From a virus (Duplodnaviria; Caudoviricetes), in the IMG/VR virus record IMGVR_UViG_3300028832_000116, positions 1 to 64,000 of that record: DNA of 64,000 nt; one strand, written 5' to 3'. Positions 2,694 to 9,759 of this stretch are shown piece by piece. Under the pieces are notes generated by a model. That model saw only the letters and a list, made by a program, of their open reading frames with translations. It was not told where the DNA came from and did not search any database. The translations under genes and the position numbers were made by a program. Position 1 is the stretch's first letter; each line of letters begins with the position of its first letter.

Positions 2694-3437
2694 ATGGCTA
2701 TTAAAGAATCGCATAAGCTTATTTGGGATACTCTGATGTCATTTTTCGCAAATCCATATGGTGTTGCTGGTCTTATGGGGAACTTATTTGCAGAAAGTTC
2801 ATTAGACCCAAAGTGTCTAACTGGTGGAGGACTAAAAACTAAAGACCAAAAAGAAACATATTTAAAAAACGTAAAAAGCGGAAAAATAACACCTGAAGAT
2901 TTTACAAAAGATGGCATTGCAATCGGAATAGTACAATGGCGATATTGGAGCAGAAAAGAAGCTTTATTTTTGTACTGTAGAGATAATGGATTCGATATTG
3001 ATAATCTACTTGGTCAACTAAACTTTCTATATAAGGAAATTGCTACATATAAAACTGTTTATAACACAATATTAACGGCTAAGTCAATTAAAGAAGCTTC
3101 AGATATTGTTATGGAACGATACGAAAAACCTGGTAATATCACAGATAAAGCTAAAGAAAAAAGAGCAGCTTTTGGACAGGAGTGCTATGACATGTTTGCT
3201 CTGAATGATATTTCAACGCCTAAGCGTTATGTCACAACAACTGCAGACAAAGTAAATTTCAGAAATGGTAATGGAAAGAATTACGCAATTATATTTAAGT
3301 CTGGAAAAGCTGGAGAATATGCATATGAATGGGTAGCAACAGCAGATAATGGATGGCATGCAGTTGTTGCACATGTAGGAAATTCTCAGCGTGTTTTATG
3401 GGTATCTCCGGATTTTTCAAAAGTACTTACAGGATAA
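2694..3437 (+). CDS. phage-tail-lysozyme-type muramidase with C-terminal SH3b-like domain
   Basis: GVAGLMGNLFAES, GIVQW, QLNFLYKEI, YEKP; C-terminal VNFRNGNGKNYAII. Confidence 0.8.
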   Translation: MAIKESHKLIWDTLMSFFANPYGVAGLMGNLFAESSLDPKCLTGGGLKTKDQKETYLKNVKSGKITPEDFTKDGIAIGIVQWRYWSRKEALFLYCRDNGFDIDNLLGQLNFLYKEIATYKTVYNTILTAKSIKEASDIVMERYEKPGNITDKAKEKRAAFGQECYDMFALNDISTPKRYVTTTADKVNFRNGNGKNYAIIFKSGKAGEYAYEWVATADNGWHAVVAHVGNSQRVLWVSPDFSKVLTG

Positions 3438-3464
3438 GGAGGAATTTTTACGAGTCATACAACT

Positions 3465-3656
3465 ATGAAACAAAAGACATATTGTGGTTTAAATTATAAA
3501 CAACTTAGCGATGTTATGACAACTATGTCTGGTATAGAGGAACTAAATGATTTAAACGACTATCAAAGATTAGCATTTGATATTTCGATACAATGTGTAA
3601 CTGAGGTAATGAATCGAATGCGAGATGATAAACCAATAGAATTTGAGGTCGTTTAA
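3465..3656 (+). CDS. hypothetical protein
   Basis: ORF in packed run of genes. Confidence 0.6.
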   Translation: MKQKTYCGLNYKQLSDVMTTMSGIEELNDLNDYQRLAFDISIQCVTEVMNRMRDDKPIEFEVV

Positions 3657-3944
3657 ATGAAAGAACAGAAAAAACAAGATCTTGGATTTATGAGATCTGA
3701 AGATTTAAATTTGACAATCGGACAATTGAATAGCGCGATATCTAATCTTATTCTGAATAAGACAGTTGATGAATCATCCAAGATTTTATGGGCAGCGGAT
3801 GTCGAACGCGGTAGTAATTATGAAAAAACATATAATGTTCCACCTGGTAGTGTTATTTTTTGTCTGGAATGGGTTGAAAATGGCGAATCTGTTCGGGGAA
3901 CGTTAAAACTTGAACCTCCGTTTATAGCAAAAAATTTAAATTGA
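3657..3944 (+). CDS. hypothetical protein
   Basis: abuts previous stop; GAGGT RBS. Confidence 0.65.
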   Translation: MKEQKKQDLGFMRSEDLNLTIGQLNSAISNLILNKTVDESSKILWAADVERGSNYEKTYNVPPGSVIFCLEWVENGESVRGTLKLEPPFIAKNLN

Positions 3945-3948
3945 AAGG

Positions 3949-4245
3949 ATGAATATTTTTATGCTTATTAATATGCCGGTAGATGCAATTAGCGAGGCTT
4001 GCTTAACTTGTCCTGAATTGGAAATTGATATTGTTACAAAGGAATTTTATGAATTAGCATCTCCAGAAGAAGGAACAACGGAAGTTAAAAAAATAACTTA
4101 TGAGAATGTATTGCGTTGTAAACATTGCCATCGTTGTGAAATTATATTTAAGCATGGTAGTAAACAAAAAACTTCTACTAAATCCAAAACCAAACCTAAA
4201 ACAACAAAGAAAACCACAACCAGAAAAACGGTGGCGAAGAAATGA
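3949..4245 (+). CDS. Cys-rich protein with basic Lys/Thr tail
   Basis: CLTC, CKHCHRC; histone-H1-like tail. Confidence 0.65.
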   Translation: MNIFMLINMPVDAISEACLTCPELEIDIVTKEFYELASPEEGTTEVKKITYENVLRCKHCHRCEIIFKHGSKQKTSTKSKTKPKTTKKTTTRKTVAKK

Positions 4246-5399
4246 AAAATGTTAAAGTAGTTATCGGAGCTAATTTCGGAGATGAAGGTAAAGGCTTAAT
4301 GACTGATTATTTTTGCAGTCAAGCTCCTCCGAATGAAAAAGTTCTGAATGTACGGTTTAACGGTGGTGCTCAGGCAGGGCACACGGTTGTTGCTCCAGAT
4401 GGTAGAAGACATATTTTCAGTCACTTTGGAGCAGGTTCATTTTTGTCAAATGTGGCAACCTATTTAGGCCCCGAGTATATTATTAATCCAATTTTATTTC
4501 GTAGAGAGTATGAAAGGCTTGAGAAACTCGGGGTTATTCCTATGATATATTGCCACCCGAGGTGCTTGATTACTTTTCCGCAGGATATGATGGTAAATCA
4601 GTTCATTGAAAAAAGACGTGGAACAGATCGCCATGGATCCTGCGGGATTGGTATATTTGAAACATTACTTAGAAGTCGAAAAGACAGTGATATTTCAGCA
4701 AGCACTTTAACTGTTCTTGGAATGAAACATTGCCAGATTGATATTGACTATTATAGTAACGAAAGAGTTGAAAAGATATTTGGAGTTACTCTTGAACAAG
4801 ACGAAAAAGCGTTGCTAATCAATCAGAATATTCGAGCACATTTTAATCAGGACATTAAGTTCTTTATGGATCATGTTAGTTTTGTGGACGAAAAGATATT
4901 TAGGCATTTCAATCACGTAGTTTTCGAAGGTGCTCAAGGGTTATTACTTGATCAGAACAATTCTGCATATTTTCCTCATTTGACACCGAGTAATACTGGT
5001 ATACAGAATGTCGTGCCATATTTAGATCGATCTATGGATGTGGAAGTTTGTTATGTAACTCGTCCATATTTAACCAGACATGGTGCTGGCAAACTTCCTA
5101 ACGAATGCCCTAGAGAGATGACTGGAGCGAAACCCGATCTTACCAATCATATTAATGAATGGCAGGGTGAACTTCGGTATGGAAAATTAAATGTTGCGGA
5201 TCTTATGAAACGTTGTGAAGACGATATTGAGCCTATTTATTATTTTTCAAAAATTTCATATGCTGTTACGCATATGGATGAAGCTTTAAAGTCCGACTTG
5301 ATGCCATATTCTGATGACCTTTATTTGTCATACGGTCCATGCAGAACAAATGTTAAAAAGTTATTTGGAGAAGACGATGACATCAACAGAAGCGATTAA
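4242..5399 (+). CDS. divergent adenylosuccinate synthetase (PurA-fold) enzyme
   Basis: GANFGDEGKG, RFNGGAQAGHT, FEGAQG, YLTRHGAG; aspartate-binding TTGRxR loop absent. Confidence 0.85.
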   Translation: MKNVKVVIGANFGDEGKGLMTDYFCSQAPPNEKVLNVRFNGGAQAGHTVVAPDGRRHIFSHFGAGSFLSNVATYLGPEYIINPILFRREYERLEKLGVIPMIYCHPRCLITFPQDMMVNQFIEKRRGTDRHGSCGIGIFETLLRSRKDSDISASTLTVLGMKHCQIDIDYYSNERVEKIFGVTLEQDEKALLINQNIRAHFNQDIKFFMDHVSFVDEKIFRHFNHVVFEGAQGLLLDQNNSAYFPHLTPSNTGIQNVVPYLDRSMDVEVCYVTRPYLTRHGAGKLPNECPREMTGAKPDLTNHINEWQGELRYGKLNVADLMKRCEDDIEPIYYFSKISYAVTHMDEALKSDLMPYSDDLYLSYGPCRTNVKKLFGEDDDINRSD

Positions 5400-6414
5400 C
5401 ATCATTTTTAATGCAAGAACTGCCAAAGACATATTTCCTCCGGGAGAAGATACTATTCGTTCAACTTTTCATAAGTACGCAAAGGTTATTCACCCAGACG
5501 TATGCGATGATCCTAAAGGGCAAGATGCATTTTTACTGTTAAAAGATTATTATGAATATGCTCTAACTCATCCCAACATTGAAGACTTGTCCAGTCCATA
5601 TTCTGGGCAAAAAGTTATGCTCCGTAGAGCGCTGGATATTTCCTCATTCGAACTTGGTGGTAGGTATACTTCTGACAAAGACGTTACTTATATTCTGGAT
5701 TCAGGAAAAGAAAAATTTTTTGACAATTACTTAAATTCAGTTAAACAAATGCATAATCAACTAGAGCATGTTGTAGATGTAAACATGAAGAAGTTGTATT
5801 TGCCATTGATTCCTCAAGTTGAACATACTTTTAAAACTTCCCCATCTGGATATTTTGGAAGTCGCTTTGGAATCGTTATATTTCGGAATTCGAATGAGTA
5901 TCCTTTTGACTTATTTTTAAAAGCCTATAAAGACGAACTTACCGGTCGCGATATTGCTTGGATGATTTCCAGAATGACGGACTTATGCTGTTTTCTTAGA
6001 TGGTGCGGATGCCCTATGGTTTTAAATGGTTTTACAGAAAATAATTTATTCATCAATCCTGATAACCATTCTATCCATATTTATGGTGGCTGGTGGTATG
6101 CAACTCCGCTTGACGAGCCAATGATTGGTACCAGCAAAGACGTATATTCTGTAATGACTAACAAAACAAAAACTGATAAACGTTCAGCACAACTTACTGA
6201 TATTGAATGCGTAAAAGCAATTGCTCGCCATATTACAGAAGCTAATCCAGATATTCCAAAACCGATGCTGGATTGGATACGTCGGGGAAGCAATGATAAT
6301 CCGATTGAGGAAAAAATGAGATGGGATGATGCTTTAGAACGTGCGTATGGCCCTAGATCATTTACCAAGTTTAATTATGATTCGTCAAAAATATTTTATA
6401 AGCGAGGTATGTAG
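5377..6414 (+). CDS. J-domain protein fused to a degenerate protein-kinase-like domain
   Basis: FHKYAKVIHPD (J-domain HPD); WMISRMTDLCCFL...VLNGFTENNLFI...GGWWY resembles a kinase C-lobe lacking HRD/DFG; start at ATG 5377 after GGAG. Confidence 0.65.
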   Translation: MTSTEAINIIFNARTAKDIFPPGEDTIRSTFHKYAKVIHPDVCDDPKGQDAFLLLKDYYEYALTHPNIEDLSSPYSGQKVMLRRALDISSFELGGRYTSDKDVTYILDSGKEKFFDNYLNSVKQMHNQLEHVVDVNMKKLYLPLIPQVEHTFKTSPSGYFGSRFGIVIFRNSNEYPFDLFLKAYKDELTGRDIAWMISRMTDLCCFLRWCGCPMVLNGFTENNLFINPDNHSIHIYGGWWYATPLDEPMIGTSKDVYSVMTNKTKTDKRSAQLTDIECVKAIARHITEANPDIPKPMLDWIRRGSNDNPIEEKMRWDDALERAYGPRSFTKFNYDSSKIFYKRGM

Positions 6415-6415
6415 T

Positions 6416-6619
6416 ATGAGAGGCCCGTTTTATGTAAGGGATAAGGATTTTCAAGACCGGGAAGTATACAAACTTGCTCATATTTGTGAAGACTGTGCCT
6501 TTTGTGATGAGCGCTCTGGATTTTGCTGTTTAAGTACCTGTACATATTTCGAATTCATGAACGAGCAAGAAACTGAGGAAAATTTTAATAAAGAAAACTG
6601 TGAAGTTACGGATGATTAA
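6416..6619 (+). CDS. small Cys-rich protein
   Basis: CEDCAFC...CCLSTC; GAGGT RBS. Confidence 0.6.
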   Translation: MRGPFYVRDKDFQDREVYKLAHICEDCAFCDERSGFCCLSTCTYFEFMNEQETEENFNKENCEVTDD

Positions 6620-6632
6620 GGAGGATATTTAA

Positions 6633-7574
6633 ATGGGTAGCGGAACTTTTACAACTCAGGATTGGACACGGTATGCGCGTAGTAATGTTTATGGTAAAAG
6701 TACGAATGAAATATATACTTCCAAAGGATTAAAAACAGAATTTGATCCTAAAAATGTTTTACGTGAATCTCGAGATTCTGATGAGCATCCGAATAGTACC
6801 CCGATTATTATTGGATTAGATGTTACTGGATCAATGAACAATATTCTGTATGAGGTTGCACAGCAACTCGGATCTCTTGTTACTGAGATTCTGGAAAGGA
6901 AGCCCGTCAGTGATCCCCAGATTATGTTTAATGCTATTGGGGATAGTTATTGTGACGAGGTGCCTTTCCAGTGTACTCAGTTCGAATCCGATATTCGAAT
7001 CGCAGAACAACTTACACAGTTATATTTTGAACGCGGAGGCGGAGGAAACGATTTAGAGTCCTATCCCCTCGTCTGGTATTTTGCTGCTAATCATACATCT
7101 TGCGATAATTTTGAAAAGCGTGGTAAAAAGGGATTCTTATTCACAATGGGTGATGACGCATATCCTAAGACTCTTACATCTCGTGAACTTTCCAATATTT
7201 TTGGTGATAAGATCGAAGGCGCTTCAGAACTTACAATGAATGAGGTTTTAACTCAAACATCACGTGAATGGGAGATATTTCATTTGTGTTTGAAACAAGG
7301 TTCAAATATGTCTAGTAGCTGGTATGCCGATGGTGGTACAGAAGAAACCAATCGGGTACTTGATGAATGGACAAATTTAATTGGCGAACGCGCAATTCCA
7401 GTTTCTGATTATACGAAAATTCCGCAGATCATTGTTTCTATATTAGAACGAATGGCTGGTAAATCCGTAGAGGATATTGTGGATTCCTGGGATGGCAGCA
7501 CAGCAGTTGCTGTAAAGGAAGCCATTTCTGGTCTAGCAGAGACTAAAGAGAGGTCTGATCTGATTGAGTTTTAA
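6633..7574 (+). CDS. vWA-domain protein
   Basis: IIIGLDVTGSM MIDAS-like motif, GGGGNDLESY, LFTMGD. Confidence 0.85.
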   Translation: MGSGTFTTQDWTRYARSNVYGKSTNEIYTSKGLKTEFDPKNVLRESRDSDEHPNSTPIIIGLDVTGSMNNILYEVAQQLGSLVTEILERKPVSDPQIMFNAIGDSYCDEVPFQCTQFESDIRIAEQLTQLYFERGGGGNDLESYPLVWYFAANHTSCDNFEKRGKKGFLFTMGDDAYPKTLTSRELSNIFGDKIEGASELTMNEVLTQTSREWEIFHLCLKQGSNMSSSWYADGGTEETNRVLDEWTNLIGERAIPVSDYTKIPQIIVSILERMAGKSVEDIVDSWDGSTAVAVKEAISGLAETKERSDLIEF

Positions 7575-7684
7575 TTTTCAAGTATCATCTCCCTGGCAAG
7601 CAATTGTTGGGATATGCATGCTTATTTTATTGGTAATTTACTTATTCAAAAATATTAATCGAAACTTGTGAAGGAGATATCTGA

Positions 7685-7996
7685 ATGAATCCATTTCCTC
7701 AAAAAACAATACGACGAAATAAACATGCTGAACCAATGAGTTCCGGAAAATATCGTAAACTCGACAATTTCAAAACTGCAATTGGTATGGGAGCAAATTG
7801 GATCGATCAGGATACAGGTATTATGTATCATATTCAGGAATACTATGAGGCACTTCATAATCCTCAAATTCCAGCTGATCAGAAACCTACAAAAATACAT
7901 ATGACAAATTATAAAACTGGAGAAGATCTTGGATGGGCTGACGAATATTATGTCGCTATGAAAATGAAGGACCCAGAACCAGATCCTAAATATTAA
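7685..7996 (+). CDS. hypothetical protein
   Basis: AAGGAG RBS. Confidence 0.7.
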   Translation: MNPFPQKTIRRNKHAEPMSSGKYRKLDNFKTAIGMGANWIDQDTGIMYHIQEYYEALHNPQIPADQKPTKIHMTNYKTGEDLGWADEYYVAMKMKDPEPDPKY

Positions 7997-8006
7997 GGAG
8001 TTAATC

Positions 8007-8198
8007 ATGGTAAAAAATCATGCTTATTATTGTGACTTATGTAAAAAGGAAGTTTCCAGAAAAGAAGCAGAAGATTCCAGCATTGCTATGCGCAAAGCAA
8101 TGAAGAACGACGACCCAAACATATTTGACATTTGGTTTGGGGACTATTGTAAAAACTGCGCAAACAAATATATTTCAGGAGAGATTAAAAGCCTATGA
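8007..8198 (+). CDS. Zn-ribbon hypothetical protein
   Basis: CDLC...CKNC. Confidence 0.7.
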   Translation: MVKNHAYYCDLCKKEVSRKEAEDSSIAMRKAMKNDDPNIFDIWFGDYCKNCANKYISGEIKSL

Positions 8199-8428
8199 TT
8201 GTTGATCTTCCAGTTAAATGTGTATCCAAAAAACTATGCTCCAATTGTGAGTTTATTGACTTAACTTCGGATACTTTAAAAATGACAGATGGCTATGAAT
8301 CTGTTGGTACGATTACAGAAATCAGATGCAGAAACTATGAACTTTGCTCAAGGATGCTTCGATATTTAAACTTGGCTGCGGATGATTCTCATGATGATTT
8401 TAAATTTACAGGAAGAGATGGAGATTAA
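8195..8428 (+). CDS. Cys-rich hypothetical protein
   Basis: ATGA coupling; CSNC, CRNYELC. Confidence 0.65.
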   Translation: MIVDLPVKCVSKKLCSNCEFIDLTSDTLKMTDGYESVGTITEIRCRNYELCSRMLRYLNLAADDSHDDFKFTGRDGD

Positions 8429-8430
8429 AT

Positions 8431-8688
8431 ATGAATGAAACTGAAAAGAAAAGCTATTCTATTTTTCTGAAACCGAAAGATAAACTGAATAATACCCTAC
8501 CCTATGGTATTGCAAATTTACGAGTGAGTGCTTATGGAGAAAGTTTAACTGATGCATGTGAAAAAGCGGAAGTATATTTTTCAGGAGCACTTGGTGTGTC
8601 TCTTGTGACTGAAAGCGCGTACGAAGAGACCCTGTATGAAAATGATGGTGGTATTGGAAACGATATTGAAATTGAAGTTGAACCGTGA
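8431..8688 (+). CDS. hypothetical protein
   Basis: GGAG RBS, packed ORF. Confidence 0.65.
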   Translation: MNETEKKSYSIFLKPKDKLNNTLPYGIANLRVSAYGESLTDACEKAEVYFSGALGVSLVTESAYEETLYENDGGIGNDIEIEVEP

Positions 8689-8698
8689 TATTTCCAAA

Positions 8699-8727
8699 TC
8701 GCAACGGAAACAAGGCCTATTATAGAG
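8699..8727 (+). promoter_or_regulatory. Early-type promoter motif, copy 4
   Basis: TCGCAACGGAAACAAGGCCTATTATAGAG. Confidence 0.75.
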
Positions 8728-8810
8728 ACGGAGAGCGTTTGATTGATTAAAGCCGAACAGAGATTCGGAATCAATATTCAAGGAGCGCAAACGCCTCCTC
8801 TTTTTGTCTC
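8725..8810 (+). ncRNA. candidate structured small RNA or leader
   Basis: nested stems GAGAC/GTCTC, GCGTTTG/CAAACGC, ATTGATT/AATCAAT, CCGAA/TTCGG; no ORF. Confidence 0.55.
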
Positions 8811-8841
8811 TTATATTTTTTAAAAGGAGTTGGTGCTACAC

Positions 8842-9759
8842 ATGGCTGTTGGCAAAGCGCAACAAAGTCTCATGTATCTTGGTGGAAGATTCGGCGAATT
8901 TTATGAAGCGAATAAGCCGCATATTTACACCGGGATCGGAATCGGCGGAACTGTACTAACCGGTATTTTAGCAGCACAAAGTGGTGCACGATCAGCGAGA
9001 AAAATTGATCGAAGAGAAAAAGAATTAGGCAGACGCCTAACGTTTTTGGAAAAGAGCAAGCTGTGTTGGACAGACGCGATCGCTCCTGTTGCGGTTTGTG
9101 CAATCAGCGGATATTCCACATTCAAGGTTGATCGAACTTTATCTGCAGAACTTGCAAAGAGAACGACCATGCTTATTGCAAGTGAGAAAGCGTATGAAAA
9201 GTTATCCCAGAAAACTAAAGAAGTTTTAGGAGAAAAGAAAGCTAAACAAATTCAGGACGAGGTTGTAAAGGATAAAGTTCAGACGGCAGTTCAGAACGGT
9301 GTTATATCCATTGATGATTTTAACAATGCACCAAGAGTTGGTAATGGGCAATTAAGTATGTTTGTAGATGAATATACGATGTTGCCATTCTGGAGCAATA
9401 TTGATTATATTTCTCTCCAGGTTGCTGAGTTGCAGAATATGATGAATGATCTTGCTCCGAGAAATCCTGATAATGATTATAGTAATAAAGAGGTCGGTGT
9501 GCATTTTACAGAATGGTTGCATCGAATCGGATATACTAATCCGGATGTTCAGGCACGAATTGTTAAAACTCCTGAAAGGAAGCACCTCGGTTGGAATAAA
9601 GGGTTCGCCGGGAAACACGGAGTAGACGATGACGTGATTGATTTTTATAGAACACCGATTGAATGGAGTCCTGGTGTTTCTGTAACAGCCATTGGATTTA
9701 ATACAGAACCGACAGATATGAGAATGGGTCGGTTAATCAAAACATCCGGATTAGGATGA
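8842..9759 (+). CDS. DUF6353-like membrane-associated phage protein
   Basis: PHIYTGIGIGGTVLTGILAA N-terminal pattern; paralogue of 14736-15722. Confidence 0.65.
   Translation: MAVGKAQQSLMYLGGRFGEFYEANKPHIYTGIGIGGTVLTGILAAQSGARSARKIDRREKELGRRLTFLEKSKLCWTDAIAPVAVCAISGYSTFKVDRTLSAELAKRTTMLIASEKAYEKLSQKTKEVLGEKKAKQIQDEVVKDKVQTAVQNGVISIDDFNNAPRVGNGQLSMFVDEYTMLPFWSNIDYISLQVAELQNMMNDLAPRNPDNDYSNKEVGVHFTEWLHRIGYTNPDVQARIVKTPERKHLGWNKGFAGKHGVDDDVIDFYRTPIEWSPGVSVTAIGFNTEPTDMRMGRLIKTSGLG

Follow-up and report, generated by a model that had tools for sequence, protein, structure and literature searches.

Adenylosuccinate synthetase, PurA (EC 6.3.4.4; Escherichia coli structures 1ADE and 1KJX), has a phage-borne relative, PurZ, described in the Z-genome phages phiVC8 and S-2L, which has an altered substrate range and still uses aspartate. 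Other described systems share further parts with the locus considered here. In the MoxR-vWA pairs (CbbQ/CbbO, NorQ/NorD and RavA/ViaA), a cytosolic vWA protein with a metal ion-dependent adhesion site (MIDAS) is found beside an ATPase-linked partner, and the vWA adaptor works within the pair to service a client enzyme. The TerY-P triad combines a vWA protein with a kinase and a PP2C phosphatase. Viral J domains with the HPD motif, which would borrow the Hsp70 of the host, are known from RB43 Rki and polyomavirus large T antigen. The stretch analysed here, termed the window, is 64,000 nucleotides in length and comprises positions 1 to 64,000 of IMG/VR record IMGVR_UViG_3300028832_000116, a virus of the Caudoviricetes (Duplodnaviria) whose record of 100,880 bp is rated 100% complete by CheckV. 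It carries a module in which a PurA-like ligase is encoded next to a J-domain pseudokinase and a vWA-fold protein. Hundreds of large phages, as well as bacteria from many phyla, carry this module as a recurrent unit. We propose, with a probability of about 0.4, that it represents a GTP-dependent ligase that acts at C6 of a purine and uses an amine other than aspartate, together with a vWA adaptor and with host DnaK recruited by the J-domain pseudokinase.

Four co-oriented and tightly packed genes on the + strand occupy positions 4242-7574 of the window:

4242..5399, + strand: PurA-like ligase of 385 amino acids, assigned by Pfam, PHROG and profile alignments.
5377..6414, + strand: J-domain pseudokinase of 345 amino acids from its likely start; the longest open reading frame begins at 5314.
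6416..6619, + strand: small Cys-rich open reading frame of 67 amino acids with 7 Cys; GAGG lies upstream.
6633..7574, + strand: vWA-fold partner protein of 313 amino acids; AAGGAGG, a strong ribosome-binding site, lies upstream.

The motifs that an earlier note on this DNA had quoted for the ligase, GDEGKG, AGHT, EGAQG, HGSCGIGIF, DLTNHINEWQGELRYG and THMD, are all present in the translation of 4242-5399, EGAQG within FEGAQG and THMD within VTHMDE. The HPD of the J-protein is likewise present, as are the MGSG start and the DVTGSM motif of the 6633-7574 protein.

The ligase matches Pfam PF00709 (Adenylsucc_synt) with an E-value of 4e-37, over profile positions 1-280 of 416 only, and also PHROG 1211, a family that groups it with PurZ. 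The fold is shared with PurA over residues 1-328 (profile E-values of 5e-37 to 3e-35). The P-loop GDEGKG is kept, as are the residues that correspond to Asp13, Lys16, His41, Gln224 and Thr239 of E. coli PurA; in the numbering of the window protein, the catalytic residues are Asp14, Lys17 and His47, and the IMP-site residues are Gln232 and Thr248. Compared with PurA, the module enzyme has a shorter C-terminal domain and has lost Thr300, Thr301, Arg303 and Arg305 by replacement or deletion; its gene is always paired with a vWA gene.

Scores against curated models place the enzyme outside both described types. The window ligase reaches 93.2 bits with TIGR00184 (cut-off 395.55) and 102.5 bits with NF002223 (cut-off 402), the two PurA models, and 56.8 bits with the PurZ model NF038379 (cut-off 300). 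The earlier note had held that the enzyme is not PurZ, on the grounds that PurZ has Ser at the catalytic Asp. Both statements are borne out: a pairwise alignment sets GSTGKG of phiVC8 PurZ against GDEGKG of the ligase. PurZ co-occurs with DatZ, MazZ and DpoZ, and the phiVC8 purZ gene lies with genes for a dATPase and PolI; in the complete 100,880-bp record, no match to the MazG family is found, and DatZ was not searched for.

The view that the enzyme is not a housekeeping PurA is also supported. The ligases of cellular modules score 94-117 bits, versus 424-615 bits for true PurA in the same genomes, and in five of five bacterial genomes checked a true purA that scores above the curated cut-off is found alongside the module. 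On these sequence comparisons, the module ligase is a paralogue of purA. One alternative is an ordinary, divergent adenylosuccinate synthetase that boosts AMP during infection and has unrelated neighbours. The matches to PF00709 and PHROG 1211 speak for it, and database records name relatives "adenylosuccinate synthase". This explanation is nevertheless highly improbable, given scores of 93-102 bits against cut-offs of 395-402, replacement of all aspartate contacts, the second purA in five of five genomes and neighbours that are linked across 163 loci.

The changes in the active site were located with a profile of 19 family members, whose alignment with E. coli PurA extends to residue 321 (E-value ∼3e-35); residue numbers that follow are those of E. 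coli PurA unless stated otherwise. In the window ligase, the aspartate loop is replaced by TNHINEWQGELRYG. Residue by residue, N302 of the window protein corresponds to N295, W307 to T300, Q308 to T301, G309 to G302, E310 to R303, L311 to R304 and R312 to R306, and R305 has no counterpart. In PurA, R303 is in contact with free aspartate as well as with O2′ of the IMP ribose (PMC8342488).

Counts over 155 members, from phages and cells, show that the pattern is a property of the family. The catalytic residues are kept (D13 and K16 in 152/152, H41 in 152/154), and so are the nucleotide-site residues Q224 (154/154) and T239 (152/154). The Asp of the likely TKLD equivalent, which has the form T-H/C-x-D and is probably guanine-reading, is present in 144/154. 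On the acceptor side, T301 is Gln in all 154, and T300 is Tyr, Phe or Trp in 143 of 154. At the 303 position there is no Arg; Ser, Thr, Asn, Ala or Lys is found there. R304 is replaced by Leu or Phe, and R305 is absent. Elsewhere in the site, V273 is His (154/154), N38 is Gln (149/154), T129 is Cys (132/154) and R131 is a hydrophobic residue. Of the four IMP-site positions Asn38, Thr129, Gln224 and Thr239, the last two keep the PurA residue and the first two have changed. The claim that the aspartate loop is replaced while the catalytic residues stay thus extends from the window protein to the whole family. The replacement loop is itself conserved, a pattern suggestive of a pocket that was rebuilt and then fixed. 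These residues look like those of a working enzyme with a changed second substrate, and not like those of a decaying gene. Because the catalytic residues are kept, and the acceptor side is both different and fixed, the ligase is predicted to be active with an altered acceptor.

Some family members have unusual architectures. No informative domain fusions of the ligase were found, only an intein and unannotated extensions. The intein is in the PurA-like gene of Paenibacillus sp. J5C2022 (L035:6980-9289), where it matches Pfam Intein_splicing at residues 72-387 and sits soon after the P-loop region. A degenerate PurA-like copy, P0218, is found on a 102-kb metagenome contig and has GNEELG in place of GDEGKG and GHRV in place of GHTV; its acceptor loop is deleted and its C-terminal end is still like that of the window ligase. 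This sequence possibly represents an inactivated ligase copy in a related phage.

The second protein of the module begins most likely at position 5377, because its homologues are ∼340 amino acids long, their alignment begins at residue 22 of the long open reading frame, and the ATG at 5377 is preceded by GGAG at a distance of 8 nt. The two genes therefore overlap, as had been described, but by 23 nt from the likely start and not by 86. As a single sequence, the protein falls under the Pfam J-domain cut-off (19.2 versus 27.8 bits). The family profile matches solved J domains with an E-value of 7e-6, the HPD motif is at residues 60-62 of the long open reading frame, and of 109 family members, 109 keep its H, 106 its P and 108 its D. 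The assignment of a J domain is thus upheld.

An AlphaFold model of the J-protein (pLDDT 88) matches protein kinases, with an engineered J-PKA chimera as the top match and Foldseek probabilities of 1.00 to CDK2, TGF-beta receptor, VRK and PKA. The earlier description, a kinase-like C-lobe that lacks HRD and DFG, holds for the missing motifs but not for the extent of the fold: the whole kinase fold is predicted by the model. In the window protein, LNG stands in the place of HRD and GGWW in the place of DFG. Across the 109 members, an Asp at the HRD position and the beta-3 Lys are each present in only 13, and the DFG position reads Gly-Gly-Trp in every one (GGWW). The protein is called a pseudokinase because HPD is kept and the kinase catalytic residues are mostly absent; on sequence and model, it is a catalytically dead kinase with a J domain. 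The family is large. At E <1e-30, an exhaustive profile search detects 807 representative clusters, and the length is 300-375 amino acids in almost all of them.

The vWA protein has no Pfam match, and its family profile finds no match among solved structures, so that a fold search was needed to identify it. Its AlphaFold model (pLDDT 87) matches integrin beta-I and alpha-I domains, SpaC and the Ku80 vWA domain with a Foldseek probability of 1.00. The predicted MIDAS residues of the window protein are Asp63-x-Thr65-x-Ser67 and Asp174. Among 167 members, D63, S67 and D174 are found in all, T65 in 166 and T155 in 159. The proposal of a vWA protein with a MIDAS is thus supported by the modelled fold and by near-invariant residues. 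More than 5,000 members of this family are present in the protein collection, all unnamed, and matches in the ESM Atlas are to "hypothetical protein" clusters only.

The N-terminus of the vWA protein is also strongly conserved. Gly2 is present in all 165 aligned partners, which come from phages and many bacterial phyla, and Met1 in 162. The earlier note had singled out this Gly, and a specific chemistry can be proposed for it: the PurA-like enzyme might join a purine nucleotide, via C6, to the alpha-amine of the N-terminal Gly of the vWA protein once Met has been removed, with the J-domain pseudokinase and DnaK presenting or releasing the partner. The result would be a protein tagged with a nucleotide. 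Gly2 is as invariant as the MIDAS residues, the vWA and ligase genes are an obligatory pair, and the residues that bind the aspartate side chain have become Gln, aromatic or hydrophobic, as expected for an amine without a carboxylate. An invariant N-terminus is equally explained by folding or docking, and one vWA homologue appears to start with MAEKK. Ligation to the N-terminal Gly is regarded as distinctly unlikely.

At the other end of the protein, the window sequence (7554-7571) and 166 related loci display a C-terminus of the form hydrophobic-hydrophobic-[Arg/Glu/Lys]-Phe, which follows a low-confidence linker. Phe is the final residue in 89 of the 167 loci, and the window tail reads LIEF. 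To judge by its sequence, this tail resembles a short docking tail. In a subset of cluster C mycobacteriophages, e.g. CharlieB (NC_054717, 151575-152171), the vWA match is limited to query residues 1-200 (64%). An HNH endonuclease is annotated at the truncated match, and interruption by a mobile element may be involved.

Linkage of the genes was analysed in 163 loci that were fetched via the vWA gene, 80 of them cellular and 83 viral, with open reading frames scored by the three family profiles. The viral set consists of the best 80 of at least 545 matching viral contigs and 3 contigs of relatives. Wherever the contig allowed, the ligase gene is found downstream of the vWA gene and on the same strand. 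In the cellular loci, it follows the vWA gene directly in ∼76 of 80, the others being cut by contig ends, and the pseudokinase gene is upstream of the vWA gene in ∼70%. In the viral loci, the order pseudokinase-vWA-ligase occurs 48 times and vWA-ligase 30 times; the pseudokinase gene is upstream in ∼60%. The viral ligase gene is mostly adjacent to the vWA gene, and in some loci it lies up to ∼6 kb downstream. The window itself has a rearranged order, ligase-pseudokinase-vWA, seen otherwise only in two close relatives.

The three genes are therefore linked in other genomes, as had been supposed, and the possibility that they are unlinked elsewhere is clearly contradicted by the 163 loci. The vWA protein and the PurA-like enzyme form the obligatory core, and the J-domain pseudokinase is a frequent third part. 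In loci without a pseudokinase, two candidates for an alternative third partner were found to be unrelated to it.

The same arrangement is seen in sequenced phages and cultured bacteria. In Vibrio and Rhizobium phages the vWA gene stands directly before the PurA-like gene, and in Mycobacterium phage Tonenili the genes for a "kinase", a vWA-like and a PurA-like protein are consecutive. Matches to the vWA and PurA-like families cover the same phage groups, with 200-201 Mycobacterium, 10 Rhizobium and 6 Vibrio records. The module is also present in cultured Desulfosporosinus, Ruminococcus flavefaciens and Acetobacter malorum. The ligase branch as a whole comprises thousands of proteins, at least 545 viral contigs and ∼200 sequenced mycobacteriophages.

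The proposed working of the module can be outlined as follows; its substrate and amine are inferred, as are the complex and the role in biology. The PurA-like enzyme would be an active nucleotide ligase in which GTP phosphorylates the 6-oxo group of a purine nucleoside monophosphate, as in PurA. An amine other than aspartate would then displace the phosphate to give an adenylate-type nucleotide substituted at N6; with ammonia as the amine, the product would be AMP. The metal site of the vWA protein would mediate binding to the enzyme or to the target of the enzyme, in the manner of the adaptors in MoxR-vWA pairs. A partner would be held by the pseudokinase, whose J domain would bring host DnaK to remodel or switch the complex.

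Set against the described systems, the module has neither the AAA+ ATPase of the MoxR-vWA pairs nor the phosphatase of the TerY-P triad. It has instead a dead kinase with a J domain, so that the ATPase would be host DnaK, and the client or effector would be a PurA-fold ligase. Unlike RB43 Rki and large T antigen, the J-protein of the module is a fusion with a pseudokinase, and bacterial chromosomes encode it as well. No genes for Hsp70, PurB, Nudix or NAPRTase are found in the complete 100,880-bp record. The module of the window stands alone and must rely on the DnaK of the host.

Several points weigh against the proposal of a non-aspartate ligase with a vWA adaptor and recruited DnaK. Approximately 30-40% of loci are without the pseudokinase, and for this reason DnaK recruitment cannot be essential. 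Contact between the vWA protein, the ligase and the pseudokinase is suggested by gene order alone, and the likeness to MoxR-vWA pairs is an analogy. The nucleotide substrate is proposed from partial conservation of the site, in which the residues at Asn38, Thr129, Arg131 and Val273, on the IMP and acceptor side, all differ from PurA. Arg306 is kept, and on sequence it might serve to rebuild a site for an acidic substrate. No biochemical data on any family member were found in the literature.

In cellular genomes, the module has one recurrent neighbour, a ∼250-amino-acid protein of the NrtR type with a NUDIX domain and an NrtR winged-helix domain. Its gene is found immediately upstream, in either orientation, in 42 loci as detected by clustering and in 49 of 83 cellular loci as detected by profile, and it spans Bacillota, Pseudomonadota, Acidobacteriota and Myxococcota. 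The surroundings of the four genes in Desulfosporosinus orientis are ordinary chromosomal genes; the flanks carry metabolic genes and a PhdYeFM/ParE pair and no recognised defence system. Because the same module is present in bacterial chromosomes beside an NrtR-type regulator, its role is not specific to phage attack. A role in host takeover or anti-defence, put forward in the earlier note, is thereby weakened: the module lies in bacterial chromosomes by this regulator, and outside prophages where this was checked.

NAD-related genes are found beside the module in some phages. Genes for NAMPT and NMNAT-Nudix adjoin it in loci L158, L134 and L167, genes for a phosphoribosyltransferase and NMNAT/Nudix in Rhizobium phages, and an isochorismatase gene in L087. 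NAMPT is found in 2007 of 50,697 phage records and near the module in ∼4 of 62 viral locus groups; the enrichment of NAD genes near phage modules is weak because NAMPT is common in phages anyway. These genes, together with the NrtR-type regulator as sole recurrent cellular neighbour in four phyla, might point to upkeep of the purine and NAD pools. The enzyme would re-aminate IMP-type nucleotides, e.g. with ammonia, and so restore the supply of adenylate and NAD upon breakdown of NAD; in cells it would be turned on by NrtR, and in phages it would serve to sustain ATP and dATP. The low frequency of NAMPT near the module speaks against such a role, the phage of the window is without any NAD genes, and the vWA protein and pseudokinase are left unexplained. 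Pool upkeep is considered unlikely.

The distribution of the ligase over phages and cells is also reflected in its phylogeny. In a tree of 128 ligases, the window copy belongs to a clade of five members, all from phages (support 100), which is nested in a larger clade drawn from Bacillota and the phages of Bacillota (support 97). The label changes between phage and cell at least 5-10 times. The tree was built with FastTree and has some long branches, and only broad statements are safe. The host of the window phage is probably a member of the Clostridia.

Frequent exchange between phages and cells would suit a signalling or conflict system, a bacterial defence or stress system that phages have borrowed for counter-defence or for exclusion of rival phages. 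In such a system, the ligase would make or destroy a nucleotide signal once the vWA protein and the pseudokinase had detected either a protein or a metabolic cue. The NrtR-type regulator beside the cellular modules fits this explanation, as does the pairing of vWA and kinase-like proteins in conflict systems such as the TerY-P triad. In PADLOC-DB 2.0, however, no model matches any of the four proteins at E-values up to 0.1, and no linked effector (nuclease, NADase or pore-former) is found among the module neighbours. The flanks in Desulfosporosinus again argue the other way, as does the fact that ∼200 cluster C mycobacteriophages, which are lytic, carry the module. A role in signalling or conflict is judged unlikely.

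In phages no fourth conserved gene was found: each neighbour family is confined to at most 5 of the 62 viral locus groups. Several weaker associations were observed. At L099:5081-6637, in three other viral locus groups and at L001:8403-9911, genes a few kb from the module encode DUF2828/DUF7788 proteins or, in Vibrio phage phiKT1024, an annotated TROVE-domain protein. Genes for RNA ligase, DNA ligase and metallophosphatase are also near the module in several phages. All of this amounts to a weak association (≤5 of 62 groups).

The small Cys-rich open reading frame between the pseudokinase and vWA genes is present as had been described, most likely at 6416-6619, but it does not belong to the general module. 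A related 104-kb contig has a 59-amino-acid open reading frame in the corresponding position (L087:7031-7210), to which it is 55% identical, and it is absent elsewhere. By this comparison, it is a lineage-specific insert outside the core module. The same relative differs from the window downstream (L087:8961-10433): an isochorismatase-family gene comes next after its vWA gene, with ThyX behind it, and both are missing 3′ of the vWA gene in the window, where small open reading frames and a DUF6353 gene (8830-9759) are found instead. Upstream, positions 2694-3437 of the window encode a 247-amino-acid protein with a phage tail lysozyme domain (PF18013, E-value 9e-23). This gene is 0.8 kb upstream of the module, among small early-looking genes, and L087 has the same arrangement. 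A scan of positions 3400-9000 for sigma-70 promoters and terminators gave no more sites than shuffled sequence. No near-identical DNA was found in the phage collection.

No paper that describes the module was found, and such genes are mentioned in passing only; in the literature searched, the module is undescribed, widespread as it is. PurA is a textbook enzyme, and its phage variant PurZ rewrites DNA chemistry. The module ligase represents a second and much larger re-tooled branch. Its product would reveal a new nucleotide metabolite, a nucleotide-protein linkage, or control of an enzyme via a vWA adaptor and Hsp70. If the N-terminal Gly of the vWA protein is indeed the acceptor, this would be a new protein modification made by a re-tooled enzyme of purine biosynthesis, gated by Hsp70 and common to bacteria and large phages. 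The module is tractable, as it is carried by cluster C phages of Mycobacterium smegmatis and by cultured bacteria. In hundreds of genomes, genes that now bear the annotations "adenylosuccinate synthase", "kinase" and "hypothetical protein" would then gain a function.

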